Part shown: piece by piece, positions 39,919-62,495 of the stretch
Layout: each line of letters starts with the position of its first letter
Numbering within the stretch: position 1 is the first letter of the stretch
NCBI RefSeq assembly: GCF_032926325.1
Contig: NZ_CP136709.1
Span: 1,167,447-1,231,446, forward strand
Source of the DNA: Aestuariibaculum lutulentum
Lineage (GTDB): Bacteria; Bacteroidota; Bacteroidia; Flavobacteriales; Flavobacteriaceae
DNA: 64,000 nucleotides
Direction of reading: 5' to 3'
Made by a program: the position numbers and the translations under genes
The notes under the pieces: model-generated
Told to the model about the DNA's origin: nothing
What the model saw: the letters and a program-made list of their open reading frames with translations, nothing else
Database searches by the model: none

Positions 39919-39971
39919 TTAAAAAAACTCAATATAGTTTGTAAAAAGGTTAAGCGAGAGCTTAACCTTTT

Positions 39972-40448: not shown

Positions 40449-40489
40449 TTGGGCACTAAAATAATAATTCTACTATTGTTGAAATATCC

Positions 40490-43563: not shown

Positions 43564-43620
43564 TTAATTCGTCAAATATATTTATAAGTAACGAGTTTTA
43601 CCTGAAAATCATATAAATTC

Positions 43621-43656
43621 AAACAAAAAAAGCTTCCTGAAATTCAGGAAGCTTTT
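43621..43656 (-). terminator. Rho-independent terminator after gdhA (minus strand).
   Basis: AAGCTTCCTGA-N4-TCAGGAAGCTT with an A-run on the plus strand (a T-run on the transcribed strand). Confidence 0.6.
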
Positions 43657-43679
43657 AACAATTTTATAAGGGTAATTTA

Positions 43680-45026: not shown

Positions 45027-45310
45027 TTACTTTAATGTTTTAGTTTAACAAAAAACTGTATAAAAAGCTCAATTTTGGTTTAAGATGGAATTTTATTTAC
45101 GAGTTTCAAACCCTTCAAAAAAGCCATCAAATTATTGAATATACAATTTATTGCCACAAATATACGTTATCTTTAAAAATAATGCATTTATTTTTTGAAT
45201 TTGATAACATATATTTTTCATTTAATCTTGTACCAAGTTATAATATTTGTTTCTAAGGGCAGTTTTTTTATATTTGTTTTAACAATGGCTCCATTAAACA
45301 AACTACTATC

Positions 45311-46141: not shown

Positions 46142-46237
46142 CCCCCCTTTTTATTTGCTATCAAGTTTACTAAGATTTATTGCCGAAGTTCACAACAATA
46201 GTTACCTTTATCATATATCTTAATTAAGCCTCTTGAC

Positions 46238-46960
46238 ATGTCTTTTAAACCATTACTCACAGCCTTTTGTATTGTTTTATTATTGTTTTCATGCAATGAA
46301 GATAGTAATACAACATTTTCAATTATTACGGTTACTACAGACAATAACAAATTAGTTGAAATAAACATTCCCAAAGCTGAGGGCAACAACGAGATTTCAA
46401 AGAACATAAATAATGAAATAAACAAAGTTGTTTCAGCATCATTACACATTGGAGAAGAAACACCTAATGCTGAAGCTTCAATTGAAGAAAACATTGAAAA
46501 GTTTAATACCGAATACAATGATTTTGCAAAAGATTTTCCTGAAAGCACTTTCCCTTGGGAAGCTCAAATTGATGGCGAAGTTATATTTCAATCACCTGAA
46601 CTAATCAGTATATCAATTACCTCTTATACAAATACAGGCGGTGCTCACGGCAATGTTGTTATTTCGTTTTTAAATTTGGACGCTCTAACAGGTAAACGAA
46701 TTGCAAATGAAGAACTGTTTAATAATGAAAAGGATTTTGAAACTATAGCCAAAACCTATTTCGATAAATCGATTGAAGATAAAAATACGCTTTTTGAACC
46801 TGAAAACTTTCAACTTGCTCAAAATATAGGATTCAGTGAAGAAGGCCTTATTATGCTTTACAACACCTACGAAATAGCACCATATTCAGCAGGAATTATA
46901 GAATACACAATTCCCGCCGAAGAGGTCAATTCCTTATTAGCTATTAATAGCCCTCACTAA
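46238..46960 (+). CDS. DUF4163/DUF3298 (RsiV/PdaC-like) lipoprotein.
   Basis: 240 aa with a lipoprotein signal (LLFSCNED). The characteristic DUF3298 block is YTNTGGAHGN. Confidence 0.65.
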   Translation: MSFKPLLTAFCIVLLLFSCNEDSNTTFSIITVTTDNNKLVEINIPKAEGNNEISKNINNEINKVVSASLHIGEETPNAEASIEENIEKFNTEYNDFAKDFPESTFPWEAQIDGEVIFQSPELISISITSYTNTGGAHGNVVISFLNLDALTGKRIANEELFNNEKDFETIAKTYFDKSIEDKNTLFEPENFQLAQNIGFSEEGLIMLYNTYEIAPYSAGIIEYTIPAEEVNSLLAINSPH

Positions 46961-47401
46961 AGCCATTACATAACCGAGATGCATACCTTCGTGAAATAAA
47001 ATAAAATCGAAAGCATCTTCAATTGTGTTTAATGTATTTCCTGTTGTAGAAACCGTATAACTGTTAAATGTTTTAAACACCCCGTTTTCAACATCCTCTT
47101 TTGTTTTTTCTAAAGTTGAAAACAACAAAGCTTTAATATTGTTAACTTCCTCTTGAGAAACAACTCCTTCAGGCTTTGTTCCTTTCATATATTTTGAAAT
47201 CATAACCTCATCAACCATCATTGGCAAACCCGATAACTTATATGCTAATAATTGCTGAGTAACCACAATATGGCCAATATTCCAAATAATGTTATTATTG
47301 AATCCTTCAGGAACTTTATTTAAATCCTCAAGTGAAGTATTTTCTAAAAATTGTCCAAAAAATTGTCTTGTTTTAGCTAAAATGTCTAATGTAAACTGCA
47401 T
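46937..47401 (-). CDS. DinB/YfiT-family (DinB_2) four-helix-bundle protein.
   Basis: 154 aa with conserved His residues (NIGHIVVTQQ...HEGMHLGYV). Confidence 0.65.
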   Translation of the reverse strand: MQFTLDILAKTRQFFGQFLENTSLEDLNKVPEGFNNNIIWNIGHIVVTQQLLAYKLSGLPMMVDEVMISKYMKGTKPEGVVSQEEVNNIKALLFSTLEKTKEDVENGVFKTFNSYTVSTTGNTLNTIEDAFDFILFHEGMHLGYVMALVRAINS

Positions 47402-47479
47402 GCCTTATTTTTTTGATAAATATACTTTAAATGACAAAATTACTTTTATTTTGGTATAAATTTTTACAAAAATAGGATT

Positions 47480-47827
47480 ATGAAAAAAGTATATTACCTA
47501 AAAACATGCAGTACCTGTATACGAATTTTAAAAGAGTTAAATCTTCCTTCCGACTTTATTCTACAGGATATAAAAACCGAAGAAATAACCGTTAAACAAT
47601 TAGAAGAGATGCATGCACTTTCCGGTAGCTACGAAGCTCTTTTTGGTAAACGTTCAAAACTTTACAAAGAAATGGATTTAAAGAACCAAGATATTACTGA
47701 ACGTGATTACAAAAACTACATTTTAGAGCATTACACCTTTTTAAGTCGTCCGGTAATTATAATAGATAGAAACATTTTTATAGGGAATAGTAAAAAAACC
47801 GTTGAAGCCATAAAAGCAGCTTTGTAA
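47480..47827 (+). CDS. ArsC/Spx/YffB-family thioredoxin-fold protein.
   Basis: 115 aa with an N-terminal CxxC-like redox motif (YYLKTCSTCIRILKEL). Confidence 0.8.
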   Translation: MKKVYYLKTCSTCIRILKELNLPSDFILQDIKTEEITVKQLEEMHALSGSYEALFGKRSKLYKEMDLKNQDITERDYKNYILEHYTFLSRPVIIIDRNIFIGNSKKTVEAIKAAL

Positions 47828-47963
47828 AATATATTTCATTACCCCAAAAACAGGAATTTTCGAAAACATTTGTAACAAAATTCTTAAAACCTCAACTAAT
47901 CAATAAAACCTTACTTTTTAGGGTTTTGAAACAAACTATCATCTTAACTTAATTTTATTAACC

Positions 47964-49373
47964 ATGACTATCACTGGTATTACTTTAATTGTACTAGCTA
48001 TTCTGTTGGCTGTTACAATCAACATTTTTTCATCTAATGCTTCAACAGAATCGGAATCCAAAGTTCCAAATCTTGTTCAAAAGTTAATTAATTTATGGAC
48101 TCTAAAGAAGTCTATCTACTTAGGTTTACTAGGTATATTTTTTGTTAGTCTAAGCGGAATGTTTTTCTACAATCCTGCCGGAACAGCAACTGCCATTCAA
48201 TATTTGTGGGGAGGAGATGCAGCAGTTACCACTCAAGGTGTAAAACTAAAACTGTGGGGAAAAACTATTCCTATTTCTTTTGAAATCGCTTTACAGGATA
48301 AAATCATAGAATTCGACAAACAAGGCAACCGAATTATCGATAAAAACGGAGCTGAGGAAGGTATCTACCACCGAAATGCACAAACCAGAGAATTCGCCGA
48401 TGCTATTAAAGCAGATATTGCAGCTGCATTAATTGTATCTATTGATTACAATAACGAAGATTTATTTTTAGAAATGGCCGACAAAAACCGATCGGAAAGC
48501 AAACTTGTTTACGCAAGAATTTACCCTGTATACGATCAAGCCTTAAAAAACACCTGCAAACTTATGGATGCGCAAGATTATATTTCAGGAGCTTCATCAC
48601 AATTTGATTATTATTTAAAAGATCAAATGGAAAACGGGATGTATTTAACCGAAGAAGTTTATGAAGATATTGACATCAGCCCAATTACCTCTTTAGATTC
48701 TACTAGAACCGTTGCAAAAGGAAAAATAAACAACGAAAAACGGGAGAAGAAATACAGAATTCGTAAAGACAAAAACGGAGATCCAATTCGAGATGCTTCG
48801 AACTCTTTAAAACGATACGGACTAACAGTACAACAAGTTGCAGTTACGAGTATTGATTGGGAAGCAAGTTTTGACAACCGACTTAAAGACCAAAAAGAAC
48901 AGGTTGCCCAAACACAACTGGAAAAACAAGAAGCCGAAAAAGAATATTATGCCACACAAAAAGCCATTGCAAAAGGTGAACGTGAAAAAGCCGAAACTCG
49001 CGTAAAACTTGAAAAAATACAATTAGAAAAAACTATTACGGCAGAAACTGCAGCAAAAACCGCTTCTTACAAAGAACAGGAAGAATCTAACCTTTTAGCC
49101 GCAGCAAAAAAATCGGCTGAAAAAATTAGAATTATTGCCGATGCTGAGGCTTACGAAATTTCTAAAAAAGTAAATGCCGGTATTACCCCTGAAAAACAAT
49201 TACAAATGGAATTAGATGCCAGTGTGCAGCGTACAAAAGCTTTAGCCGGCCCTAATGGCCTTCAACTACCAAACACAGTTTTTAGCGGCAGCACAGACAA
49301 TAAACAAGCAAGTATGCTTGAATCTATTTTAGGCGCTAAAATTTTAAGTGGTGAAATAGGAAGTGTAAAATAA
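47964..49373 (+). CDS. SPFH/band-7 domain membrane protein with a C-terminal coiled-coil.
   Basis: 469 aa with an N-terminal TM segment and an SPFH-like core (…LTVQQVAVTSIDWEASF…) followed by an Ala/Glu/Lys-rich coiled-coil. Confidence 0.55.
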   Translation: MTITGITLIVLAILLAVTINIFSSNASTESESKVPNLVQKLINLWTLKKSIYLGLLGIFFVSLSGMFFYNPAGTATAIQYLWGGDAAVTTQGVKLKLWGKTIPISFEIALQDKIIEFDKQGNRIIDKNGAEEGIYHRNAQTREFADAIKADIAAALIVSIDYNNEDLFLEMADKNRSESKLVYARIYPVYDQALKNTCKLMDAQDYISGASSQFDYYLKDQMENGMYLTEEVYEDIDISPITSLDSTRTVAKGKINNEKREKKYRIRKDKNGDPIRDASNSLKRYGLTVQQVAVTSIDWEASFDNRLKDQKEQVAQTQLEKQEAEKEYYATQKAIAKGEREKAETRVKLEKIQLEKTITAETAAKTASYKEQEESNLLAAAKKSAEKIRIIADAEAYEISKKVNAGITPEKQLQMELDASVQRTKALAGPNGLQLPNTVFSGSTDNKQASMLESILGAKILSGEIGSVK

Positions 49374-49392
49374 CATATTGAATTACTATTCA

Positions 49393-49430
49393 AAAAAAGG
49401 GAGCTATAAGCTCCCTTTTGTGTTTTTCGA
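49393..49430 (+). terminator. Rho-independent terminator.
   Basis: AAGGGAGCT-ataa-GCTCCCTT followed by TTGTGTTTTT. Confidence 0.55.
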
Positions 49431-49459
49431 AAGTTCTAATAAAGTCATATAATTTACTC

Positions 49460-49513
49460 CACAAAAAAAGCCTCACATTTCTGTAAGGCTTAAATTTTGC
49501 TCCCCCTCTTGGG
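49460..49513. repeat. Distal att-like direct repeat: a partial copy of the tRNA-Asn 3' end plus its downstream terminator hairpin.
   Basis: 54/54 bp identical to 59213-59266 (CACAAAAAAAGCCTCACATTTCTGTAAGGCTTAAATTTTGCTCCCCCTCTTGGG). The upstream flank is similar but imperfect. Confidence 0.75.
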
Positions 49514-49631
49514 GTTTTTCTATATAACACACAATATTAATAATCAGACACTTAACAAGACTACATCTTTACATTTCACCTTTAAACACACCCTTGAATA
49601 AATAAAATTAGGTACGTTTAATAATTCCTTT

Positions 49632-52600
49632 TTAACGTTTTAGAGCAAAATGCCCTTTGAAAACTCTACCGTCTTCTAAAATAACACTGAACCAATAATC
49701 ATCTGTAGGAAGCATTTCACCTTTAAAGGTACCATCCCATCCATTAGAGCTTGGATTTAACTGCTTTAACAATTTACCATAACGGTTATAAATAAAAATA
49801 TCACTTTGAATTTGAAACTGATCATTAACACCAGGAATATACCAAGTATCATTAATACCATCTCCATTAGGCGTAAAGTATCTTAGAAAACCTATTACCG
49901 AAACTTCTATTGAAGCTGTTCCACAGCCTTTTTTATCTCTTACATAAACCGTATGAATACCTGAACTAACATTTTCAAATATAGGGCTATCCTGAAAAGA
50001 TGAAAATTCATCATCTAAAGCATATTCATATTCTCCCTGTCCTAAGTTATTAGTATTAATTATAACTTTATTATTATTTGAAACATCTTCTATAACTATG
50101 TCCTCTGGAATAATATTAGCTAATTCAGAAGCATTTACAAAAACATCTCTAGTTCTAGAACACCCAGTTCCATCAGTCTTGGTTAAAGTTATAAAATAGG
50201 TTCCAGGCGTTGACACCGTTAAAGTAGGCGCATTAGAGAGTACTGTACCATCTTCATACACCCACTCATAATTAAAAATTTCATTTGCATTTGACTCTAA
50301 AGGATCTAGAACAATTGTAAACGTAGGGTCTGATGAACAAACTATTTGAGAATTTTCAATTGTAAAATCAGGCAAAGGATTAACTATAAACTGAATATCT
50401 GTAGATGCAATACAATTAGAATTTAAGGGATTTACTACTTTAACTGTTACAGTTTGAGTATTCGACCTAAATGGATTTGGTAAGGGACTTGGTAATTCTA
50501 TACCTAGACTATTATAATAATGAACCTCCATGCCTGTTTGTCCATTTAAAACAGAACTTTCTATTAATGATGTATCAAAATCATGCAGCCCATCCGAATC
50601 ATTTATACCATCGTCACATGATATTAGATCTGATACCATATTAGCTACAGGCTTCTTATCTACAATAAATTCTAAAGTCGTCTCATCAAAACAACTTCCA
50701 TCAGCTATATTATTATTTTCTACAACAACTTTTATAATTTGACTAGAGGTTAAAAACGGATTAGGCAGAGGGCTAGGTAAAGGATTATCATTTTCGTCAT
50801 AATAGAAAATGGAAACATCACTTAAAGACTGACTTCCTAAAACGGTTAACTCTACTTCAGATACATCAAAAGGATATTTACCATCAAAATCATCATCACA
50901 TTCTCTTGTTATTGTAACTGGATTAGCAACAGGATTAGCTTCAACATGCAATGTTATATGTGCTCCTAAACCTAAACAATCGTTATTTAGCCTACTATCT
51001 ACCCTAACATAAATATCTTGTGTATAAGGATATCCAATATTACTATAATCTGTTATATTCTCTATTTTATTAACTTCAGCCAATGCATCAGGTTCATTTT
51101 GGTAATAAGTAATTATTAATTCCTGTCCTGCAGGAAATAGACTGGCAATTTCATCATGAACAGTTTCAAAACTAAAATTTGAAATCCCATCAAAATCATC
51201 ATCACAAGTATAAAACTCCCTTTTAAAATCCAATGGAATCTTTGTTGTAGTTACTATTAAATTAACTTTTGAGACCCTAAAACATCCATTTTTATTTTCA
51301 ACTCTAGCCCAAACCACATCTAGACTAGGTGTATTATTAGAATATGTTGTTAAATTAGTTATTGGATCTTGATCATTTTCAGCTTTTAACTCCGATTCGA
51401 AAAATGAAACTTTCTCTTCGTCTGCATTAGTAGTTATTTCATTTATAACTTCATTTAAATTAAATGCACTGTAAAGACCATCTAAATCATCATCACATTG
51501 TTTTAGTTCAACAATTGGAGTCACCGACGGTAATTTTAAAACTTCAACTATAAAGGACGTTATTGCTTTACATTCACTATTTAAATTACTAACACATTCC
51601 ACATAAATGGTTTGCGAGCTTTGACTATTAACAAAGGTATTTGGCGAAGCTATTGGCTGTTTGAGGTCTTCATCTGTATAATAATTATAGTGCACTTCTG
51701 AATCTATTCCGTTAAGCAATAGATATTGTTCCTTTTCTGTTAGATCAAAAACAACAATTCCATCTGTATCAGACCCTGAGTCTGAATTATCGCATTGTGT
51801 TAAATTTGAAATATTATTAGGCAATTCCAATTGTGGAGTTTTATAAACACCTATATTAAACTTCGTAATATCATTACATTCCGGGTTCTGTTTGTTATAA
51901 ACTTCAGCAATAATTTCTTGTGTAAAAAACCCTAAGGCATTTGTATAAGCTTCAGGTGCATTAATTTTTATCCCATTATTATAATTTTCTATTCCTTCAT
52001 AATAATGCACTCCAAAAACATTAGAATCTAGACCATTTAAAACATATTTATTATGACCATATAAATCAAAAGAATTATCATCATACAACGTGCATAACCC
52101 TATATCATTAGGTTTACTTGCTATTGGCTGCTCATATATTGTAATCGTAGTTACTTCTGTTACAGTATTACCTCCTAAGGACGCAATAACACTAACCTCA
52201 TAGGTTCCAGCTTCAGAAAACACATGTGTAGACTCTAAATCTGTTGAAGTATTATTAGCTCCTGAAATTGGATCTCCAAAATCCCAATGGATTGAATCTA
52301 CTGTTTCTTCAAGAATAAATTTAGCTGTATCTCCAAAACATAAATTCTCAACACTGAAAGGAATTTCTTTTGTTTTCCTAGGTACTCCAGTAACATTTAT
52401 AAACAAATTAGAAGGAGGTCTACCACTACCAAAATCTGTTGATTTTATATAAGACCGAGTACCTAAGCACCCTTTATACCATGAAAAATCATTCCCTTCT
52501 TCTGTTCCTGCCAATTGAACTGCTGAAACTCCAATTCCTCCAGGAGAAGCCTCCTTTTTTACTTCTACCAATATCCTTTCTACTCCCGCCGGAACAATAA

Positions 52601-52988
52601 CTGGTGTTTCAAAATTAATCGTAAATATCACCTTATTACCAGACCATGCAGGTGGAGCTAATTCTACCTGACTACTTCCTATTAATTTAGATTCGTCAAA
52701 GCTATTGGGAAAATCAAAATCTATCTCATAAATATTAAAACTTAAATTGGAGTTATCAGCAACCGACATGTAAAGACCAATTTCTCCTTGATCTATAATA
52801 AATTCTTCGTCTGGATTAACACCAAAATCTAAAAGCGTAAATGTCCTAGCTAAATGCTCTGTTTCTTCACAAGATCCAACATAGGACCTTACAAGATTAT
52901 CACCTACATTATGGGTTAGTTTTATTTGACTAAATAAACTTAAATTAACTCCTAACAGTAGGATGATAAAACTTAAAAAAAATCTCAT
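49632..52988 (-). CDS. Large secreted adhesin-like protein with a T9SS type-B C-terminal sorting domain (CHU_C / gliding-motility-associated CTD). Island cargo.
   Basis: 1118 aa with a signal peptide and internal Ig/PKD-like repeated modules with recurring ...DENDNPLPSPLPNPF... linkers. The C-terminus ...YNRYGKLLKQL...GEMLPTDDYWFSVILEDGRVFKGHFALKR is typical of type-B T9SS CTDs. Confidence 0.75.
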   Translation of the reverse strand: MRFFLSFIILLLGVNLSLFSQIKLTHNVGDNLVRSYVGSCEETEHLARTFTLLDFGVNPDEEFIIDQGEIGLYMSVADNSNLSFNIYEIDFDFPNSFDESKLIGSSQVELAPPAWSGNKVIFTINFETPVIVPAGVERILVEVKKEASPGGIGVSAVQLAGTEEGNDFSWYKGCLGTRSYIKSTDFGSGRPPSNLFINVTGVPRKTKEIPFSVENLCFGDTAKFILEETVDSIHWDFGDPISGANNTSTDLESTHVFSEAGTYEVSVIASLGGNTVTEVTTITIYEQPIASKPNDIGLCTLYDDNSFDLYGHNKYVLNGLDSNVFGVHYYEGIENYNNGIKINAPEAYTNALGFFTQEIIAEVYNKQNPECNDITKFNIGVYKTPQLELPNNISNLTQCDNSDSGSDTDGIVVFDLTEKEQYLLLNGIDSEVHYNYYTDEDLKQPIASPNTFVNSQSSQTIYVECVSNLNSECKAITSFIVEVLKLPSVTPIVELKQCDDDLDGLYSAFNLNEVINEITTNADEEKVSFFESELKAENDQDPITNLTTYSNNTPSLDVVWARVENKNGCFRVSKVNLIVTTTKIPLDFKREFYTCDDDFDGISNFSFETVHDEIASLFPAGQELIITYYQNEPDALAEVNKIENITDYSNIGYPYTQDIYVRVDSRLNNDCLGLGAHITLHVEANPVANPVTITRECDDDFDGKYPFDVSEVELTVLGSQSLSDVSIFYYDENDNPLPSPLPNPFLTSSQIIKVVVENNNIADGSCFDETTLEFIVDKKPVANMVSDLISCDDGINDSDGLHDFDTSLIESSVLNGQTGMEVHYYNSLGIELPSPLPNPFRSNTQTVTVKVVNPLNSNCIASTDIQFIVNPLPDFTIENSQIVCSSDPTFTIVLDPLESNANEIFNYEWVYEDGTVLSNAPTLTVSTPGTYFITLTKTDGTGCSRTRDVFVNASELANIIPEDIVIEDVSNNNKVIINTNNLGQGEYEYALDDEFSSFQDSPIFENVSSGIHTVYVRDKKGCGTASIEVSVIGFLRYFTPNGDGINDTWYIPGVNDQFQIQSDIFIYNRYGKLLKQLNPSSNGWDGTFKGEMLPTDDYWFSVILEDGRVFKGHFALKR

Positions 52989-53093
52989 GTAGGTAAAACT
53001 CAGAAAACAATAATAACGGGCAAGATAAAAATTATATACGACGTATTTTATTACAAATACACATTTTAGATAAACTGCTTACAGACTAGAATA

Positions 53094-53240
53094 TTACTCC
53101 CTCTGAGTAGCTCTGTATGCACTAAGCATTTCTTCAAAAGTAATAGGCTTATATTCAGACGTATGAATTGTAGAATACCTATTCACTTGCGCAAAACCTA
53201 ACATTGGTAGGATAATAAAAATTAAAAACATATTTTTCAT
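53094..53240 (-). CDS. Possible small secreted peptide (48 aa).
   Basis: Self-translated MKNMFLIFIILPMLGFAQVNRYSTIHTSEYKPITFEEMLSAYRATQRE, which has a signal-peptide-like N-terminus. There is no other support. Confidence 0.2.
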   Translation of the reverse strand: MKNMFLIFIILPMLGFAQVNRYSTIHTSEYKPITFEEMLSAYRATQRE

Positions 53241-53258
53241 AGGACAAAAAATTAAATA

Positions 53259-54077
53259 CTATTCATAAATAAACACTCCTGAATCCTGAACATCTTGGGC
53301 TAACAATTCGTAAGAAATAGGATAATTATCGGCATCGTATTGGTATACTACTTTAAAAATTTCATTTCCGTCTGAATCAGATATACTTGTTACATTATTT
53401 GGAATAAAATTTACATTTAATCGCTTCTTTGAAAAAATAGAAGGTGCGTTAGGTATATATATCCCTGTTTCAACCCCTACTTTAAAAAACGGATTAATTT
53501 TATCATCTAGAACGACATTAAAAATACTTGAGCTTGATTCACCTGCATAATATTCTGTTATGGAATATTGATGTAACTTACCATCTTGATAACTAAACAA
53601 TAGTTTTCTATGCAGTTCTCCATCTATATAAAACTTATACTCACCTAGATTCTCTCCATCATACTTATATTCACCTACTACAATACCATCCTTTCGGATA
53701 AAACTAATTTTACCATTAGAATATTCATAATCATACTTTAGACAATCGACACAATTCGCTAAATCAAATGAAAAGTCATTGTAACTTTCATAGTTACCAC
53801 CACCATGTTCTGGATTAGCAAGAATTACACTTTTCAGTATGTTCTCCTGATAAATTAACTGATGAAAATCTTTCCAAGTTTGATAATTAATAATTTTTAT
53901 TAGCTTATCATTTTCAAAGTAAAAATAAAGCTTATCATACTGATCGCTACCTTCTACTCTTAACAATGTTTTGGCTTCTACTACAACCGGATCTGGACTG
54001 CCTTCCTCTGAAGAACCAGAACTACAACCTATTAAAAACAACACCATTAAAAGTATCTTTAAAACATTTTTAATCAT
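53259..54077 (-). CDS. Hypothetical lipoprotein (island cargo).
   Basis: 272 aa with a lipoprotein signal (LFLIGCSSGSS). Tyr-rich. Confidence 0.5.
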   Translation of the reverse strand: MIKNVLKILLMVLFLIGCSSGSSEEGSPDPVVVEAKTLLRVEGSDQYDKLYFYFENDKLIKIINYQTWKDFHQLIYQENILKSVILANPEHGGGNYESYNDFSFDLANCVDCLKYDYEYSNGKISFIRKDGIVVGEYKYDGENLGEYKFYIDGELHRKLLFSYQDGKLHQYSITEYYAGESSSSIFNVVLDDKINPFFKVGVETGIYIPNAPSIFSKKRLNVNFIPNNVTSISDSDGNEIFKVVYQYDADNYPISYELLAQDVQDSGVFIYE

Positions 54078-54690
54078 ACTTTTTATTTTTAATAAAAATT
54101 TTTAAAAAACTAATATACAACACTATACCATAAAATATATACGGTTTTCCTTATTTCATAAACGCCGTTAACTCCTTCCTTTATCTTTTGTTTTTATTAA
54201 TTAAGAAGAAATACTTCGCAAACTTAAAAAACACTAATTAACATAAATGTAATACACTGATTACAAAAACATTACATATATTTACCCTCATAAAAACCCA
54301 ATACTCCCTACTATTAATAATAGTATACTTTTTGTTTAACCATTAATTATACTTATTATGTCACATCACGGAATGAATTCACTACACGGCATTAACGCCA
54401 TGTGCAAGCACGACACCTCCCACCACGGACGATTCGGAAGAATGTTTAGCTGTTTAAACCCCAACTACAACCCTCCTCTAGAACTTTCAAAACTCGGAAT
54501 AAAAGATGGTCCAATGGATGGAGGAAATGCTTACACTCTGATTAATTACAAATGAGTAACAGTTGATCAAAATGGCACAACTGAACTTCACATTGATTTT
54601 GACACGATGCACTGTGATTAAAGACTAATTGTAAATAAAAAGAAGCTAACCACTTCCCTTTAACTTTTCTATTTCAGAACTAATTTTCCT

Positions 54691-54876
54691 CTAAACCACC
54701 TTACCGTAACTATCCTGAGTAATTTTCATATCGGAATGCCCTAAAAGTTCACTTACTATTTCCATAGGCACGTTATTATAGAGCAATACAGTACTAGCAA
54801 AAGTACGTCTAGCTATATGGGTGATTAGATTCTTTTCTATTCCAACAACTCCAATCATTTCTAATAGATAAGAACC
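54691..54876 (-). pseudogene. Remnant of a tyrosine-integrase 3' end (last ~60 codons), paralogous to the integrase at 56097..57293.
   Basis: The minus strand translates to ...IGVVGIEKNLITHIARRTFASTVLLYNNVPMEIVSELLGHSDMKITQDSYGKVV*, almost identical to the C-terminus of the 56097 integrase (HMARRTFASTVLLYNNVPMEIVSELLGHSNMKITQESYGKVV). Similarity is lost upstream of 54876. Confidence 0.75.
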
Positions 54877-55113
54877 AAATGTTTAAGAAAGGGAAAGAGT
54901 CTTATTCTAACTCAACTAACTCAATTAGTTGGTAAGGATAGACAGTACCTATATAAAATTGAAAAAAATGTTGTAACGTTTTGCAGATTTGCGATGGGCG
55001 GGTTTTTCAGGACAAATATTCATATGGAGCATTACACTTCCATTAACCACAACAGTGTCATAGAAGCACGTCACCTCGATATTGCAAATGTACTGTTACC
55101 TGCTGCCATTCTT

Positions 55114-55599
55114 CTATCCTACAAAGTCTGAACGATTTGTATTTGGGTCATATTGAATTTCCAAGTCTGTTCCATTCCAAATCGCTTCACAACTTTCAAG
55201 TCGGTATGTGTCACCTTGGTTCCAACTTGCACCAATATAATCTTCAATTAAGTCTTCAATGAAAACTCTTTCACCAATTACAATATCTTTTGGTATTAAG
55301 TATGCTGCAAAAGGCGACTTGAAACTATGAGGATAATAAAATGTCCAGTCAACCACAGTTTCAAAATCATTATTATCGTCCGAATAAAAGTCGACCCGAT
55401 AGTCTCCAACAATTTCAATTTCTCCCGTTTTCTTGTTTTGAACCACAGAATACTTTGAACGAATTTTATCAGAAGGTTCAACCTTTTTTACTAATGGATT
55501 AAGTCCACTTTTAGCAGCCTTATTTATAGTGTCCTTGTCACGGGCAGTTTTTATAACACGTAATCCTTGCGTTTTTTTATTTCTGTTCAAGAATGCCAT
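55114..55599 (-). CDS. Hypothetical protein (island cargo, second gene of a two-gene cassette).
   Basis: 161 aa with no recognisable motifs. Overlaps the upstream gene by 23 nt. Confidence 0.45.
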   Translation of the reverse strand: MAFLNRNKKTQGLRVIKTARDKDTINKAAKSGLNPLVKKVEPSDKIRSKYSVVQNKKTGEIEIVGDYRVDFYSDDNNDFETVVDWTFYYPHSFKSPFAAYLIPKDIVIGERVFIEDLIEDYIGASWNQGDTYRLESCEAIWNGTDLEIQYDPNTNRSDFVG

Positions 55600-55942
55600 T
55601 TGATACTATTTTTATATTGTGTTGTTTTAAGTCAATTTTCAAACAAGTGTCGGGATTTTGTCTAACAATTTTCAGAAGGTCGTCATCTGTTAAAAATTCT
55701 GTATCAACTATTAAGTGGACGCAATTTGCACATTTTCGAAATGTAGAATTTGTAGCTTCTAATTTGTCCCAACTCATTTTATAGGGGCAATTCATTTTCT
55801 TCACAAATTCGTCTTTGTCTGTATAAATATCTTTTGTTAATGGGTCAAATTTCATTGCTCGTGTCTTTTTATGGTAACAGATAACTCCTAATATATTTAC
55901 AATTTCAGTAATAGCTTTAACACTTGAAATTCCTCTAAACAA
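55577..55942 (-). CDS. Hypothetical small Cys-containing protein (island cargo). The true start may be the internal Met at 55855.
   Basis: 121-aa ORF. The MKFDPL... version is 92 aa and has a CPY...CANC...C pattern suggesting a small zinc-binding fold. Confidence 0.4.
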   Translation of the reverse strand: MFRGISSVKAITEIVNILGVICYHKKTRAMKFDPLTKDIYTDKDEFVKKMNCPYKMSWDKLEATNSTFRKCANCVHLIVDTEFLTDDDLLKIVRQNPDTCLKIDLKQHNIKIVSNGILEQK

Positions 55943-56022
55943 ATTTTTTAAAATTGAAATTTAGTGTTTATAAAATTATAAATTTCCCTCATGTAAAAAA
56001 CGATGAAATTTGCAATAAGAAA

Positions 56023-56062
56023 CTTGATGTTGCAAAAAACTTAATTTTTCTACAACATCAAG
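56023..56062. promoter_or_regulatory. 10-bp perfect inverted repeat (CTTGATGTTG-N20-CAACATCAAG) between the integrase 3' end and the two-gene cassette.
   Basis: Read directly from the sequence. Could be an integrase terminator on the minus strand or an operator for the downstream cassette. Confidence 0.4.
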
Positions 56063-56096
56063 ATACTTAATACAGTTTAAAACTCCTTTTTACTAC

Positions 56097-57293
56097 CTAA
56101 TCACTTTGTTTTAACCTCTCAATTTCCAAACTAACTTTTTTCTGTACTACCTTTCCATAGCTTTCCTGCGTTATCTTCATATTACTATGACCAAGTAGCT
56201 CACTGACAATCTCCATAGGCACATTGTTATAAAGCAATACAGTGCTTGCAAAAGTACGTCTAGCCATATGGGTAGTTAAATTTTTTTCAACCCCTATAAT
56301 CGCTGCTATTTCCTTTAAATAGGAATTATAACGCTGATTACTTATTCTAGGAAACACTAAATCATCATCGGTATACTTACATAAAATATTTAAAGCTTTT
56401 GATAATAATGGAATTGATAAATCCTTATCTGTCTTTTCTCGTTTCATCTTAATCCACTTATTACCGTCAAACCCATTAATAATATTTGTTTGTTTAAGGT
56501 TCATTAATTCCAAATAAGGTAACCCAGTATAACAACTGAATATAAATAAATCCTTTACTAGTTTAAGTCTAGGCTGTATAAATTCATAACTCTCAAGCTG
56601 TATTAACTCTTCTGGTGATAAAAACACAACCTCCTTCTTAACCTTTTTAGCTTTATAAAGCATAAATGGATCTACCTGTAAATGTCGTTCAGCTACAGCA
56701 ACTTTAATTATCTTTTTAAAACGCTAAATCTTTTTATTGATGGTAACCTGTTTTAACTGCGTTTTATGCCCTACCTTATAGTAGTAGTCCAATTCACTTA
56801 AAAAGTTCATATCAAGTTTCTTTAGTGGATAATCCTTGGTTTTAAACTTCCATTTCACAAAAGCTTTAATATCATTTTTAACGTATTCAAACTTCTCGTA
56901 GGTTACTTGTTTTATCTCAACACCAACAAGCGTTTTTATGCGTTTTAAGTAACGTTCAAAGTATTCAATCACGTTGTATTCCTTAGCTGTTTTAACGCCT
57001 TTATACAGGCTAAAAATATCGTCTACAGTAAAAGCTTCATCTTTAACCTGAAGCAATAAAAAAGCCCTATTAATTTTAGTTTTAATAAGGCTTAGCTGTT
57101 GATTTATTTCTTTTCTATCTGGTTCAGGTGGTTTAACTACCTGTTGTTTACTATCCCAGTTATTAGCATTTACGAACTGACCTGTAGAAAATGTTTTTCT
57201 GACTTTATTATGTGTCAATCTACACATTAGTGCACAAACTCCTTTAGCATTTTTTTTCTGCTTATTTATTATAAATAGTATGTTGATTTTCAT
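56097..57293 (-). pseudogene. int: Tyrosine site-specific integrase (Bacteroidetes arm-binding + SAM-like + catalytic domains) interrupted by a single in-frame TAG at 56724-56726.
   Basis: ORFs 56724..57293 (N-terminal, MKINILFIINKQKKNAKGVCALMCRLTHNKVRKTFSTGQF...) and 56097..56663 (catalytic, ...HMARRTFAST...LLGHS...Y) are in the same frame. They are separated only by a TAG, and the bridging translation ...TINKKI*RFKKIIKVAVAERHLQVDPFMLYKAKKV... is continuous. Confidence 0.8.
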
Positions 57294-57359
57294 TTTGAAT
57301 AAGATTTTAAATTAAGGTGGAAGGTAATTGACTAAATAAAGTTATTTATCTTTAGAAGA

Positions 57360-59051
57360 TTGAACATTATGGAGTTAAATGCAATGTGTTTATTCCTATA
57401 TTATGTAGAAGTTATGCGTAAAAGTAATACACTTGAATTTATAGAAAAATCAAAAAATGTACATGGTGATAAATATGACTATTCAAAAGTTGAATATTTA
57501 GGAGCTACAGAAAAAGTCTGTATCATTTGCCCGGAACATGGACCTTTTTATCAAATTCCAAATTCTCATTCTAGAGGTAAAGGATGTTTGAAATGTGCAC
57601 GAAAAATAGCAATTAAAAAAACATATTCTAATACTGAAAAATTTATTGAAAAAGCCAGAAAAAAACATGGAAACAAATATGACTATTCAAAAGTTGAATA
57701 TATAAAAGCTAAAGAAAAAGTCAGTATTATTTGTCACAATATAGATGAAATAACAAATGAAAAACATGGAGAGTTTTTACAACAACCATCTAATCATCTA
57801 GCAGGTGGAAATTGCCCCAAATGTACTGGAAATTATATGACACAAGAACTTTTTATAAAAAGAGCAAGAGTAATTCATAACAACCAATATGACTATTCAA
57901 AAGTTGAATACAAAACTGCACGTAAAAAAGTAAATGTTATTTGTCCAGAGCATGGACTATTTTCGCAGGTACCAGATAGTCATATAAGAGGTAACGGATG
58001 TCCTAAATGCAGTAATATTTACTCACCCACAACTAGAGAGTGGATTGAAAAAGCTAAGAAAATCCATGGTAACCGATATGATTATTCCAAAACAGTCTAT
58101 AAAAAAACTCATTCTAAAGTATCCATCATTTGTAAAGAACACGGAGTTTTTTTGCAAACACCAGCAAATCACCTCAATGGTAATAACTGTCCTAAATGCA
58201 CTGGAAACTATATGGATAAAAGTTTTTTCATACAAAAAGCAAACGAAATCTATAAAGATAAAAGTGGGGCTCCATTATATGATTATTCATTAGTTGATTA
58301 CGTAGATTCCTCTACTAAAGTGACAATCATATGCCATAATAAAGACCCTGAAACAGGTAAAGAACATGGCGAATTTAATAAAACTCCTAATACCCTCTTA
58401 ACTCAGCATGGTTGTCCTAAATGTGGATTAGAATCATTGCGACAAATAAAAAGCTTAACTCGTTTAAGTAATAAGGAATTTCTTGATAAGGCATTTCCAA
58501 ACGAATATGAATATCTAAATGGTTACAAAACAGCTGCGTCTAAAATGCATATTAAATGTAAAAAATGTGGGCATAAATTTTGGCAGAAAGCTAATAATCA
58601 CTTAATGGGGGCTGGTTGTCCAGCTTGCAAAATGAGTAGGCTAGAAAGAGCAGTTTGTAATTATCTCAAAAAACATAACGTTAAATATAAAATGCAAAAA
58701 AGATTTGAATGGTTAGGGAGACAGAGTTTAGATTTTTATTTACCTGATTTCAACATGGCTATTGAATGCCAAGGTATCCAACATTTTGAACCAAAAGATT
58801 TCTTTGGTGGCGATGATGAATTAAAAAATATAGTAAAACGAGATAATAGAAAGCTTAAAAAATGTTCATCCAACAACATAGAAATGGTTTATGTTATAGA
58901 CAATGAAAAGTATCTAGAAAAAAAATATCATTTTGATATTGCAGAACCTTTTTCAGGTAATGTATGTTATAAAATTATGCATATTAATAATTTTGAGAAT
59001 TATATCAACCAATTAGTTGAGATGTCTAATTTTTTTGAAAAGAAATTATGA
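57360..59051 (+). CDS. Protein with six tandem ~60-aa Cys/His zinc-ribbon repeats fused to a C-terminal DUF559/Vsr-like PD-(D/E)xK endonuclease domain (homing-endonuclease-like).
   Basis: 563 aa. Repeat consensus F(I/L)EKA..(I/K)HGNKYDYSKVEY.....KV.IIC.EHG.F.Q.P..HL.G.GCPKC occurs six times. The C-terminus LDFYLPDFNMAIECQGIQHF matches the DUF559 (R.DFY.P...LAIE.DG..H) nuclease core. The start may be the internal Met (MRKSNTLEF). Confidence 0.7.
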   Translation: MNIMELNAMCLFLYYVEVMRKSNTLEFIEKSKNVHGDKYDYSKVEYLGATEKVCIICPEHGPFYQIPNSHSRGKGCLKCARKIAIKKTYSNTEKFIEKARKKHGNKYDYSKVEYIKAKEKVSIICHNIDEITNEKHGEFLQQPSNHLAGGNCPKCTGNYMTQELFIKRARVIHNNQYDYSKVEYKTARKKVNVICPEHGLFSQVPDSHIRGNGCPKCSNIYSPTTREWIEKAKKIHGNRYDYSKTVYKKTHSKVSIICKEHGVFLQTPANHLNGNNCPKCTGNYMDKSFFIQKANEIYKDKSGAPLYDYSLVDYVDSSTKVTIICHNKDPETGKEHGEFNKTPNTLLTQHGCPKCGLESLRQIKSLTRLSNKEFLDKAFPNEYEYLNGYKTAASKMHIKCKKCGHKFWQKANNHLMGAGCPACKMSRLERAVCNYLKKHNVKYKMQKRFEWLGRQSLDFYLPDFNMAIECQGIQHFEPKDFFGGDDELKNIVKRDNRKLKKCSSNNIEMVYVIDNEKYLEKKYHFDIAEPFSGNVCYKIMHINNFENYINQLVEMSNFFEKKL

Positions 59052-59212
59052 ATACAAAACGAAGCGATTAATAATAATTTTATTAATGGGTGTCTTTTAA
59101 AAATTAATAGGTATCCAAATGGGTGTCTTTTTTTAGTAGAAGGATAAATTAAGTTTCCTAAATTAAACACATAGAGGAATTAGCAATATCTTGTAAACCC
59201 CAAATTTTACTT

Positions 59213-59266
59213 CACAAAAAAAGCCTCACATTTCTGTAAGGCTTAAATTTTGCTCCCCCTCTTGGG
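59213..59266. repeat. Proximal att-like direct repeat overlapping the 3' 14 nt of tRNA-Asn plus its terminator hairpin.
   Basis: 54/54 bp identical to 49460-49513. Confidence 0.75.
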
Positions 59267-59326
59267 CTCGAACCAAGGACCCTTTGATTAACAGTCAAAT
59301 GCTCTAACCAACTGAGCTAAGGAGGA
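59253..59326 (-). tRNA. tRNA-Asn (anticodon GTT).
   Basis: Hand-folded on the minus strand. Acceptor TCCTCCT/AGGGGGA (one G-U), U8 A9, D-arm GCTC-AGTTGGTTA-GAGC, anticodon arm TTTGA-CTGTTAA-TCAAA, T-arm CTTGG-TTCGAGC-CCAAG, discriminator G. Followed by terminator hairpin AAGCCTTACAGAAATGTGAGGCTT + T-run. Confidence 0.85.
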
Positions 59327-59496
59327 GTGTTGCTTTCTCTATCCAGAGAGCTGCTTGTGCAAATAATATGCAAACCTTAACCGGATTAATATGCGAATAT
59401 AAAATATATTTAATCAATCATCATCCAAAATGTTTTATATTTTTAAGAATCGATTCATACTTTTTTTGAGTTTGAATTACACATATAAACAGTATC

Positions 59497-62427
59497 TCAT
59501 TCTAAATACTTTTTGAGTTTTTCTGCAATTGCTTTTGCTAAAAGAGGAGGTACTGCATTACCTATCTGTATTCCCAGAGAGGTAATATTACCAAAAAACC
59601 TATATGAATCATCAAATGATTGGATTCGAGCAGCCTCCCTTGGAGTAATAGTTCTATTCTTTAACGGATGGGTAATTCTCCCAACAGAAGGAGTGTTAAT
59701 CCTTGTAGTTATTGTGTAAGAAGGTTTTGTTCTGTCTATTCTACCATAAGCTCCACTATGAATAGATTTTGTATGATATTCCCTAGGAAGATCTTTGATT
59801 CCTTGTCCTTCTTTTATAAGTTTTAAAATTTCAATTGTTTTGGGTGTTGGTTTTGAGCTAACATGATTAAAAATATATCCATTAGAACTTCTCATATTAA
59901 TCTGGTAGTTTGAGAATCTTTCTTTGTAATTTTTTGTTGATATTTTTTCATTTCCCTCTCCAGGCTCTAATTCAGGCAAATCTCCGATTGCCTCCCATGC
60001 GCTAATAAATTTCTTAGGATTTTTTTGTGGTTCAGGAAAAAGTTCTTCTGAATTTAATCCAAGTCTATTTCCTATAAAAAATGCTCTTTTCCTTAATTGC
60101 GGAACTCCAAATTCATTTGCACTTAAAACCTTTGAAGTTACATTATACCCAAGGGCTTCAAATTTCTCTATAATCTCTCTTTTAACACTTCCGTTATTAT
60201 AATTTAAAATACCTGGTACATTTTCAATTACAAAAAATTTAGGATTTAAATCTTTAACCATCCTGTAATATTCTAAGAACAAATAATTTCTTTTATCATT
60301 AAAGAACTTAAAATCCTTTCTAATTCTATTACCCGCCATTGAAAACCCTTGGCAAGGAGGTCCTCCAATAATTACATCGCATTCGGCTGATTTTTGCTTG
60401 AATATATTTTCAATAGAGATTTCAGATCTTTTATCTTTTTCTGAACCAGAAACATTTCTTATATCGTCAACTATTAATTTAGTGTTAGGATGGTTATAGA
60501 GATATGTTTTTTCTATTCTTTTATCATACTCAACAGCTGCTACAATATCAAATCCTGCTTTTTCAAAACCATTTGAAAGCCCCCCTGCACCAGCAAACAA
60601 ATCTAAAACTGAAAACTTGTTTTCTTTTTTATCTTTTGTAAACTCCTTCCTATCCCATTTGTATGAGTTGTTTATCATTTTATAATCAAAATGGGATAAC
60701 AGAAGCTTTTCTAAATTTATAACTTTCCCTTTTTTATCTAATACAGCATAATTATTTATGATTTCAGGGATTATAAATTCATAAAGTTGAGAAGAGGTTA
60801 CAGCTCCATTCTGAATCAGAAAATCCTGAACTGAATTAACTATAAAAACCTCACCATCTTCACAAGGTTTTGATAATACTGGTTTATTACAATTTGATTT
60901 TTTGTATGTGTAAACAAAATCCCCGGTCAAAGTATTATTTTTGTTTATTCCTTGTGTTCCTGAAGATACCGCTTGCTCTTGTAAAATTGCTGATTCAAAT
61001 TTGAAGCCGGCATTAGTACATGCATCGATAATAGCCTTCCATACATTTAAATCTCTATTATGAAATGTAAAGGACAGATAAGATTCTGGCTTTAAAACTC
61101 TATACATTTCCTTAAATGCTTCACCTATTCTTTTCGAATAATCTTCATAATCCTTTTCTCGAAAATTATCAATGATTATTTCATCTTCAAATTTAGGTTT
61201 ATTTTTCAACCAGGTATTCCATAAATGACTTAAAGAAAAATAAGCTATACTTTCTCCATAAGGAGGATCTGTAAAAATATAATCAACACTTTCGGAAGAA
61301 ATTGTAGTATTTCTACTATCTAAATTTAATATTTCAGCATTTTCTCCTCCAATATTTTTAAGTTCCTTTTTCCCTTTTTTAATAGCGTTAAATCTTAGTT
61401 CAAAACAATCTATCACATTTCTCTCTGCATGAATATTAGGAACCCAAAATTTACTTATTACCCAACCTGACTTATAAATTCCCTTTTCTGGATCACCTGG
61501 TAGCATACTACTACAGTTAGCCAGCATTGAAGTAAAAATGAAATCAAACAATTCTCTAATATCTTTATTTTTAAGCTTATTAATTTCATATTTAATCTCT
61601 GCTAATATCAATAATGCTCTCTTAGAAAATAGTTCATCAATTGTTTCTTTATTATTCCTCTTTACATATTGAGGAATTTTATCCGTTGGAATTAAATTTT
61701 TTTTGGTTTTAGATAATTCATCTAATAATTTCTCACTTTTTTGAAAAATTTTCAAATCATAACCTGTAGCTTTTTTAACAAACTTACCGTGAATCTCGCA
61801 TTCTCCTTTTAGAGTGAGTAATTCTTCAAATTCCCAAACGGAACAATTAATTTTTGAAACTTTATTGCAGACAGGACAGGGAGATTCATATAAATTCCCA
61901 TATAAATTAACTACCTTACTAAAAATTTTATTATAATTATTTTGAAACTCCTCTAAATCAATTGAACTGATAGAATTTCTAACAATCGAAATACTCATAG
62001 GATTTAAATCAACTCCAATTACCCTCCTTTTAGTTTTAAGTGACTCTATAACAGTAACACCTGACCCCATAAAAGGATCTAATACCACTTGATTCTCTGA
62101 AGTGAAATATTCGATATATTGACGTACAATATTATGAGCCTTTCTCCCCCAATATTTATGCATCAAATAATGCTTAGGATGTGAATGAGCTTTTAAATTA
62201 CCCAATTTAGGCTTTCCATTATTTATTGTTGCTACGTGTATTTCAGAAGCATTGTTTTTTTGATCAATAATATAATTATCAATACTTTCTTTCAAATATC
62301 TTCTGTGTCCAGAGTTTCCAATCCTAATATACTCAATTAAACCAGAGTCTGCATATCTTTTAACTGTTGATTCTGAGACCGATAACACTTCCGCTGCCTC
62401 TTTTGTAGTAAGTTGATTTTTCTTCAT
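59497..62427 (-). CDS. Triple-domain DNA methyltransferase: N-terminal HTH, an N6-adenine/N4-cytosine MTase domain and a C5-cytosine MTase domain (Type IIS-like fused modification enzyme).
   Basis: 976 aa. HTH at the N-terminus (TTKEAAEVLSVSESTVKRYADSGLIEY). Amino-MTase motifs I (VVLDPFMGSGVTV) and IV (FTDPPYGES). C5-MTase motifs I (VLDLFAGAGGLSNGF), IV (IIGGPPCQGFSMAGN), VI (FFVIENVPG), VIII (QLRKRAFFIG) and X (GNAVPPLLA). Confidence 0.9.
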   Translation of the reverse strand: MKKNQLTTKEAAEVLSVSESTVKRYADSGLIEYIRIGNSGHRRYLKESIDNYIIDQKNNASEIHVATINNGKPKLGNLKAHSHPKHYLMHKYWGRKAHNIVRQYIEYFTSENQVVLDPFMGSGVTVIESLKTKRRVIGVDLNPMSISIVRNSISSIDLEEFQNNYNKIFSKVVNLYGNLYESPCPVCNKVSKINCSVWEFEELLTLKGECEIHGKFVKKATGYDLKIFQKSEKLLDELSKTKKNLIPTDKIPQYVKRNNKETIDELFSKRALLILAEIKYEINKLKNKDIRELFDFIFTSMLANCSSMLPGDPEKGIYKSGWVISKFWVPNIHAERNVIDCFELRFNAIKKGKKELKNIGGENAEILNLDSRNTTISSESVDYIFTDPPYGESIAYFSLSHLWNTWLKNKPKFEDEIIIDNFREKDYEDYSKRIGEAFKEMYRVLKPESYLSFTFHNRDLNVWKAIIDACTNAGFKFESAILQEQAVSSGTQGINKNNTLTGDFVYTYKKSNCNKPVLSKPCEDGEVFIVNSVQDFLIQNGAVTSSQLYEFIIPEIINNYAVLDKKGKVINLEKLLLSHFDYKMINNSYKWDRKEFTKDKKENKFSVLDLFAGAGGLSNGFEKAGFDIVAAVEYDKRIEKTYLYNHPNTKLIVDDIRNVSGSEKDKRSEISIENIFKQKSAECDVIIGGPPCQGFSMAGNRIRKDFKFFNDKRNYLFLEYYRMVKDLNPKFFVIENVPGILNYNNGSVKREIIEKFEALGYNVTSKVLSANEFGVPQLRKRAFFIGNRLGLNSEELFPEPQKNPKKFISAWEAIGDLPELEPGEGNEKISTKNYKERFSNYQINMRSSNGYIFNHVSSKPTPKTIEILKLIKEGQGIKDLPREYHTKSIHSGAYGRIDRTKPSYTITTRINTPSVGRITHPLKNRTITPREAARIQSFDDSYRFFGNITSLGIQIGNAVPPLLAKAIAEKLKKYLE

Positions 62428-62495
62428 ATTTTCCGTAACCGTTCAAAACGTTCACAAATCTAATAAATAATGATTAAAATTGTTAAAAATATTAA

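Follow-up and report, generated by a model that had tools for sequence, protein, structure and literature searches.

What kind of DNA lies between the tRNA-Asn(GTT) gene and the SPFH gene of the flavobacterium Aestuariibaculum lutulentum, where a 54-nt sequence occurs twice without a single difference, and how did it come to be there? The DNA analyzed (the window) is a 64-kb stretch of this genome (contig NZ_CP136709.1), assigned to the species by proteins that match its annotated ones exactly, and to this stretch the searches for repeat copies in A. lutulentum were confined. A preliminary description, made from the letters of the stretch, had proposed an integrative genomic island inserted at the 3′ end of tRNA-Asn. 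The analysis supports the insertion and revises the nature of the island: with a probability of roughly 90%, positions 49514-59212 are what is left, in decayed and mosaic form, of integrative elements that were inserted at the 3′ end of tRNA-Asn(GTT) through site-specific recombination by a tyrosine integrase. The features on which this reading is built are as follows.

49460-49513, minus strand: distal direct repeat and attR-type junction, consisting of the displaced chromosomal tRNA-Asn 3′ end (15 nt) and terminator hairpin; the match reaches 49453 with one mismatch, and the junction is identical in Aestuariibaculum sp. M13
59213-59266, minus strand: proximal direct repeat and attL-type junction, carrying the 3′ end and terminator that now serve the tRNA gene (repeat match and folding)
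59252-59326, minus strand: tRNA-Asn(GTT), the integration target; 59213-59331 is 100% identical to A. sediminum
56097-57293, minus strand: integrase pseudogene int1, with Arm-DNA-bind_5, Phage_int_SAM_5, and Phage_integrase domains (domain profiles) and an in-frame TAG at 56724-56726
54646-54874, minus strand: stump of a second integrase, its last ~76 codons with an internal stop, from a family member other than int1
53094-53240, minus strand: 48-codon stump resembling (78% identity) the first part of a gene in the M13 element that encodes 149 aa
49585-49599, plus strand: AACACACCCTTGAAT, which by its position in the distal arm is a candidate arm-type site for integrase binding; its orientation is opposite to that of the two proximal copies
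59082-59129, minus strand: AAGACACCCATT(AAT/TGG), present twice in the same orientation; candidate arm-type sites for integrase binding in the proximal arm, with a position conserved in three related loci (L022, L025, and L026) and a presumed function

The tRNA-Asn site and its occupants

The perfect repeat was borne out as first described: all 54 nt of 49460-49513 recur at 59213-59266, and the match widens to 61 nt (49453-49513 and 59206-59266) with one mismatch at 49459/59212. The copies start 9,753 nt apart and enclose 9,699 nt. Within the window, sub-patterns of the repeat occur at these two places only, even when 3 mismatches are tolerated, and two matches were obtained in none of 100 shuffles. 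The tRNA gene was called by both ARAGORN and Rfam (RF00005, 67 bits), and the repeat begins in the 3′ half of its T-stem, so that the tRNA part comprises the last 15 nt of the gene according to ARAGORN and the last 14 nt, the figure given earlier, according to the Rfam coordinates. The remaining 39 nt, downstream of the tRNA, fold as an intrinsic terminator, a 10-bp stem closed by a GAAA loop with a U-run behind it, in agreement with the earlier statement that the repeat takes in the hairpin. It was also correct that the distal copy holds the tRNA 3′ tail only, since tRNA sequence stops there right after CTTGGG. The base that ends perfect identity (49459/59212) is swapped between strains: on the tRNA strand, the window has G at the distal and A at the proximal position, and M13 has the reverse (positions 8890 and 30573 of the merged sequence L116+L115).

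Related genomes were fetched via the SPFH gene and compared by blastn. In A. sediminum TT11 (L002), the SPFH gene is followed by one copy of the repeat and terminator, tRNA-Asn, and then RseP, SCO1, and FeoB. Window segments 43621-49513 (78% identity) and 59213-59331 (100%) are adjacent in this genome, and the points at which synteny breaks coincide exactly with the inner edges of the repeat. A. sediminum TT11 is an exact empty site, with the arrangement of tRNA-Asn directly followed by the SPFH gene that had been predicted. The tRNA-Asn gene and its 39-nt terminator are 100% identical between A. lutulentum and A. sediminum (59213-59331 versus positions 11517-11635 of L002) in flanking DNA that is only 78% identical; possibly, elements pass the tRNA end and terminator that they carry from one species to another.

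The same site is filled in Aestuariibaculum sp. M13, whose locus was found via the protein cluster members P0129 and P0269; the order there is RseP, tRNA-Asn, a 54-nt repeat identical to that of the window, an island of 21,629 nt, the same repeat again, and SPFH. The M13 island contains an intact 402-aa integrase and a replication module, and M13 and the window are 95.8% identical over 13.5 kb (39645-53105). This close relative with related island content has the repeat at both ends of its island, and a copy of this content at the same position without the repeat, which would have spoken against integration, was not encountered. A. suncheonense SC17 (L001) is collinear with the window up to 49513 and continues into a drifted copy of the repeat, with two substitutions and a deletion in the tRNA-derived part, changes that mark it as a displaced, non-functional fragment. 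Beyond it lie genes for a GH2 beta-galactosidase, a sulfatase, a GH20 enzyme, and a SusD protein (positions 11468-21407 of L001), and no tRNA was found within the 10 kb fetched. The same site is thus independently occupied in A. suncheonense, seemingly by a polysaccharide-utilization locus, whose far end and any integrase lie past these 10 kb. Nothing could be learned here from P0124, a metagenomic relative of SPFH around which the genes are ordered differently.

The proposed mechanism is that an integrase with N-terminal arm-binding, core-binding, and catalytic domains would pair the attP of the element with the chromosomal site, the attP already sharing an identical block of 54-61 nt or more with the tRNA 3′ end and terminator, and that strand exchange within this block of identity would insert the element. 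The tRNA gene would stay intact, as the element supplies its last 15 nt and terminator, and the original chromosomal copy would be pushed to the far end beside the SPFH gene, giving the direct repeat. Two copies of AAGACACCCATT between the core and the integrase and one inverted copy in the distal arm are candidate arm-type sites by virtue of their position, their number being not significant window-wide (at least five matches in 30 of 100 shuffles). Insertion into the 3′ end of tRNA-Asn, as first suggested, is supported by the empty site, by the M13 island, and by the association of the integrase family with tRNA-Asn.

The integrase family, the make-up of the island, and rival explanations

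The tyrosine integrase noted in the preliminary description is present with all its domains and is a pseudogene rather than an intact gene. Open reading frames (ORFs) 56724-57293 and 56097-56663 lie in one frame and jointly encode 398 residues with all three integrase domains, split by the TAG at codon 190, a position occupied by Gln in nine of ten aligned homologues and by Lys in the tenth; as read from this alignment, a change from CAG to TAG is the likely cause. Each half has been annotated as its own protein. As each of these proteins is on record from two contigs, the stop codon is unlikely to stem from an assembly error; for annotation, the two "integrase" proteins of this genome are halves of one pseudogene. 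Since int1 is truncated, the island is probably immobile now. A TGLPY motif in int1 was considered as a loss of the first catalytic arginine and rejected, TGLP being invariant across the whole family in the alignment and hence a family trait.

The integrase family is very large (4,216 matches below 1e-20), and the best matches to int1 are 88% (a Logan contig, L015) and 82% (M13) identical, with 80.8% DNA identity to the M13 integrase. The 88% relative starts inside the same hairpin sequence and has the same order of nuclease and then integrase, followed by entirely different cargo. A metagenome scan for the family yielded 80 loci (L021-L100), of which 44 had a detectable tRNA. In 21 of these 44, the integrase is preceded at ~200-300 nt by a tRNA-Asn(GTT) gene of the same strand, and a terminator hairpin follows the tRNA in every case. 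Most family members of at least 53% identity for which a tRNA was found are at tRNA-Asn: those of at least 57% are all there, and those of 53-56% are at either tRNA-Asn or, in five loci, tRNA-Met. Members of 48-52% identity are mostly found at tRNA-Met, Val, Asp, Pro, Lys, or Arg, with the integrase again ~200-300 nt downstream on the same strand. From this distribution, tRNA specificity appears to track integrase divergence. No distal repeat was detected within ~10 kb in 32 tRNA-adjacent metagenomic loci of the family, and these elements are probably longer.

The island itself reads as a mosaic remnant of several related elements and not as one clean element. The stretch that is 95.8% identical to M13 spans the left flank, the distal repeat, the junction of element and chromosome, and the adhesin gene together with the 117 nt that precede it, ending at 53105, inside the 48-codon stump; because this identity crosses both the junction and the adhesin gene, the distal end appears to have been inherited from an ancestor common with M13. 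Within the island, only the distal 3.6 kb are orthologous to M13, and the tRNA-proximal 6 kb differ. The second integrase remnant proposed earlier was confirmed as the 76-codon stump, which has 85% amino acid identity to protein P0003 versus 78% to int1, and 84.6% nucleotide identity to the M13 integrase. No degenerate internal att copy was found between the sub-elements in a search of the window at up to 3 mismatches.

These identities suggest an order of events in which the distal junction and adhesin gene would already have been present in the ancestor shared with M13, and the tRNA-proximal 6 kb of A. lutulentum would later have been replaced and eroded, leaving in the proximal part a second integrase lineage (the stump) and a third, int1, with a homing-endonuclease-like passenger, before the CAG-to-TAG change at codon 190 truncated int1. 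Most simply, related elements would have integrated one after another into the tRNA end that each insertion restores, and later deletions would have taken away the internal att copy along with most of the older elements. By now the island can most likely no longer move, except by the action in trans of a related integrase.

Intact relatives show what may have been lost. M13, L015, L030, and L112 all carry a gene for an AAA_24 (Sak4-like) protein together with DUF3871, and three of these four carry a VapE/DUF5906 or AAA_25 helicase-primase, which was not seen in L015; no structural, conjugation, or mobilization genes were seen in any of the four. The AAA_24/DUF3871/VapE-DUF5906 primase-helicase module is absent from the window. 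No relaxase, mobilization, oriT, or conjugation domain was found in any ORF of the island or in the M13 element (Pfam, NCBIfam, PHROGs, and PADLOC), and no capsid, terminase, tail, or lysis genes were found either, the PHROG matches of the island being to the endonuclease only and those of its relatives to replication genes only.

The combination of an integrase with a phage-type replication module, in elements devoid of structural and conjugation genes, raises the tentative and rather unlikely possibility that the family consists of phage satellites, or of otherwise phage-dependent integrative elements, and that the window holds a dead satellite. The Sak4-like AAA_24 protein and the VapE/DUF5906 helicase-primase, with its matches to PHROG helicases and primases, would suit such a role, as would the defence cargo and the homing-endonuclease genes, which are typical of phages. 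Against it, no satellite hallmark genes for capsid redirection or packaging were recognized, the integrase relatives in IMG/VR are distant (only 32-34% identical, so that a recognized virus is not supported), and the window itself, from which the module has been deleted, is silent on the matter.

That the 9.7 kb are instead one intact and currently mobile integrative element is very unlikely. Although the repeats are perfect and all integrase domains lie in one frame with 88% identity to an intact homologue, this explanation is largely refuted by the stop codon with its doubly recorded gene halves, the second integrase stump with its own stop, the gene stump at 53094-53240, the lack of the module carried by L015, L030, L112, and M13, and the restriction of orthology with M13 to the distal 3.6 kb.

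The composition of the DNA bears on whether the region could be ancestral and have been lost from A. sediminum by deletion between the repeats. The island has a guanine-plus-cytosine (GC) content of 30.8%, compared to 35.6% in the left 49 kb, where none of 160 same-size windows was as low, and its tetranucleotide distance is 0.22 versus a maximum of 0.13 for native chunks, which fits a foreign origin; the island is indeed more AT-rich than its surroundings, as had been judged by eye, with a difference from the left flank that is real but modest. Presence and absence alone cannot polarize the event, and recombination between the repeats would leave the empty site that is observed, but such a loss would be excision itself and would leave the identity of the element unchanged. 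With this foreign composition, and with three species or strains holding three different contents at the site, an ancestral region has very little probability. Practically no weight can be given to the repeat being a copy of a dispersed terminator or repetitive extragenic palindromic (REP)-like family, or the product of a chance or duplicative event apart from integration, for although part of it is a terminator hairpin, of a sort also found after tRNA-Asn in other contigs of flavobacteria, it has two copies only in the 64 kb and one in the empty-site genome, includes 15 nt of tRNA, has its inner edges exactly at the synteny break, and shows the same edges around different DNA in M13, so that a dispersed family is refuted for the DNA available.

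Several points nonetheless weigh against the reading of the island as a decayed mosaic of integrated elements. It comes from sequence analysis, in which no circular form or free attP could be observed; int1 is broken, which makes the mobility of this copy historical; and the search for further repeat copies in this genome covered 64 kb. Where in the 54 nt the strands were exchanged is deduced rather than located, and the history of tandem integration and deletion is a reconstruction in which no internal att copy marks the joints between sub-elements.

Cargo genes, an apparent integron cassette, and the flanks

The remaining features of the island are its cargo and passenger genes, and the list given in the preliminary description (a surface adhesin of the type IX secretion system [T9SS], a lipoprotein, small unknown genes, and a zinc-ribbon-repeat nuclease) proved right.

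49632-52988, minus strand: 1118-aa PKD-repeat surface protein (adhesin) with a T9SS type B (CHU_C) sorting domain (domain profiles)
53259-54077, minus strand: 272-aa lipoprotein, with a signal peptide and an LIGC lipobox; UniRef name DUF4595; a weak homologue adjoins the integrase in the related locus L030
54358-54555, plus strand: 65-aa ORF without a family match
54975-55885, minus strand: apparent lone integron gene cassette (SALIN-like), comprising orf92 (55577-55855), the overlapping orf161 (55114-55599), and an attC-like imperfect palindrome (~54975-55100), with GTT at both bounds
57360-59051, plus strand: free-standing homing-endonuclease-like gene of 563 aa, with about six zinc-ribbon/treble-clef repeats (DUF723/DUF4379) and a C-terminal Vsr-fold PD-(D/E)XK nuclease domain (profiles, model, and fold search)

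For annotation, the adhesin, lipoprotein, and nuclease are island cargo. The adhesin falls in one protein cluster at ≥90% with the adhesin at the same position in M13, within DNA that is 95.8% identical.

The nuclease gene sits between the candidate arm-type sites and the integrase start codon and is an insertion relative to L022, L025, and L026, in which nothing lies between these two features. Its C-terminal domain was modeled with AlphaFold2 (AF2) at a predicted local distance difference test (pLDDT) score of 86.6, and Foldseek matched the model to Vsr structures 1cw0 and 1vsr (E values of 1.5e-4 and 7.5e-4) and to 3r3p (2.6e-3), that is, to Vsr endonuclease and to the catalytic domain of homing endonuclease I-Bth0305I. 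Profile matches to DUF559, PvuRts1I, and PD-DEXK are weak, a sequence search of the PDB with the nuclease returned nothing useful, and PHROG families annotated as HNH or homing endonucleases are matched at E = 9e-100. Homologues of 63-68% identity occur elsewhere within similar elements and defence islands. That the gene is present or absent at one intergenic spot among related elements, and placed differently in others, would be indirect evidence of homing. The modeled fold and the location of the gene fit a selfish, free-standing homing-endonuclease-like gene. Like members of the I-Bth0305I family (PMC3239194), the 563-aa protein has a Vsr-like PD-(D/E)XK fold predicted at its C terminus and homologues with phage-associated annotations; unlike them, its gene is free-standing rather than intron-encoded, and its DNA-binding part would be an N-terminal zinc-ribbon array.

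Two further observations concern this gene and its location. Single genes have repeatedly landed in the short spacer that separates the arm repeats from the integrase start codon, which holds a zinc-ribbon/Vsr nuclease in the window (57294-59081) and in L015 (positions 204-1631), a DUF1508 gene in M13 (positions 9400-10000 of L116), and nothing in L022, L025, and L026. Within the nuclease gene, four diverged direct repeats of ~200 nt (57425-58132) correspond to zinc-ribbon modules, and homologues vary in repeat number (416 to ~890 aa).

Between the two integrase fragments lies a 913-nt segment (54974-55886) that is 88% identical in nucleotide sequence to eight metagenomic cassette-array contigs (L101-L108), all with the same end points, and the similarity stops at GTT on either side. 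In these contigs, the 92-aa and 161-aa genes stand in same-strand runs of short genes whose neighbors vary from contig to contig and include toxin-antitoxin genes (PemK, ParE, Fic, and HTH_3); the cluster of orf161 comprises 123 proteins at ≥90% identity, from many samples. The 161-aa gene is followed by an imperfect palindrome with a partial stem and with TAAC...GTTA as its outer boxes, and elsewhere in the arrays genes are set apart by a second palindrome, unrelated in sequence, that has these boxes as well. Integron cassettes and attC sites are laid out in this way. The attC-like site was judged by its boxes and by folding rather than scored with an attC covariance or IntegronFinder model: its orthologue in L101 folds well (z = -2.6), and the palindrome of the window is degenerate and folds no better than shuffles. 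Home-made palindrome scans for further attC sites were too noisy, missing even the clear L101 site, and were not used. No intI-type integrase was found in the island, the sole match to the NCBIfam integron integrase being a weak, sub-threshold one to int1. Look-ups of exact-protein records for the SPFH protein, orf161, and integrase P0002 returned no match.

Isolated single-attC cassettes that lack an integron integrase, termed SALINs, are known to insert at GWT sites (bioRxiv 10.1101/2022.09.11.507474), and complete integrons are very rare in Bacteroidetes (PMC9024848). The segment at 54975-55885 resembles SALINs as a lone cassette outside an integron, with an attC-like palindrome, GTT bounds in keeping with the GWT consensus, and the same cassette in shuffled arrays; it differs in its host, a flavobacterium, and in an attC-like site identified by means other than the IntegronFinder model. 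On balance, these sequence features make a lone integron cassette of the SALIN kind the somewhat favored interpretation.

The flanks had been described as housekeeping DNA, and this holds on one side only. The left flank (GDH, PdaC-like, DinB, ArsC, and SPFH genes) consists of core genes whose order is conserved in three relatives. On the other side, upstream of tRNA-Asn, M13 and A. sediminum have RseP; the window instead has a 976-aa HTH_17/N6-N4/C5 DNA methyltransferase fusion (59497-62427, minus strand) and an ORF that starts at 62499 on the plus strand, runs off the window, and matches the PADLOC candidate defence family PDC-M26A (E = 7e-56). This right flank (59327-64000) has 29.5% GC and a strong tetranucleotide deviation and is not syntenic with M13 or A. 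sediminum. Extra DNA of at least 4.6 kb therefore also lies on the 5′ side of tRNA-Asn, with limits beyond the window, and it is probably a second, separate acquired segment of defence DNA.

Relation to known elements and meaning for the Flavobacteriaceae

The kind of element, the type of target, and the architecture of the repeat are already known. Classes of integration into tRNA genes were reportedly laid out by Williams in 2002, and the window resembles them in having a block of identity that covers the tRNA from the 3′ half of its T-arm to its 3′ terminus, a tRNA restored by the element, and a tRNA-proximal integrase gene in the orientation of the tRNA; it departs from them in that 39 of the 54 nt of the block lie downstream of the tRNA, with the whole terminator included and the T-loop outside. 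NBU1 and NBU2 of Bacteroides, with integrases IntN1 and IntN2, are elements of 10-12 kb that target the 3′ ends of tRNA genes (Leu and Ser) through common cores of 13-14 bp and carry mobilization genes and an oriT. The island shares with them a small size, integration at a tRNA 3′ end, and a Bacteroidota-type tyrosine integrase with an arm-binding N terminus, and it differs in its 54-bp core, as opposed to 13-14 bp, and in the relaxase and Mob domains, none of which were found in its ORFs, in contrast to the mobilization genes and oriT of NBU1 and NBU2.

The nearest precedent is the 10K island of Riemerella anatipestifer, for which experiments showed that the integrase, together with a 53-bp attP, brings about integration and excision with precision (PMC6764341). 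It is likewise an island of ~10 kb in the Flavobacteriales, with a tyrosine integrase beside a tRNA gene and a perfect repeat (53 bp, here 54) that comprises the tRNA 3′ end and a downstream hairpin with a T-run. Because this repeat unites the 3′ end of tRNA-Arg with a hairpin, a repeat that swallows the terminator is already documented, and the earlier deduction that the attP must carry a terminator-like copy, which follows from the block of identity, has an experimental precedent. The two cases differ in the target, tRNA-Arg rather than tRNA-Asn, and in condition, the Riemerella island being intact and active and the present one a mosaic with a nonsense-mutated integrase; the likeness is one of architecture.

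How such islands work is understood no differently after this case. What it offers is a cleanly delimited example of the re-use of a tRNA-Asn hot spot in marine Flavobacteriaceae, with four states of the site in a single genus: empty in A. sediminum, filled with an intact 21.6-kb element in M13, with a decayed 9.7-kb mosaic in A. lutulentum, and with polysaccharide-utilization genes in A. suncheonense. A broader and speculative reading, which is at present improbable, is that the window is a decayed example of a very large, undescribed family of Flavobacteriaceae elements with a tRNA-specific integrase and the AAA_24, DUF3871, and VapE/DUF5906 genes, perhaps satellite-like, which would re-use tRNA-Asn serially and ferry defence systems, homing-endonuclease genes, and integron cassettes among marine Bacteroidota. 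If that were true, the lone cassette (54975-55885) would testify that integron integrases are active in a phylum almost without known integrons.

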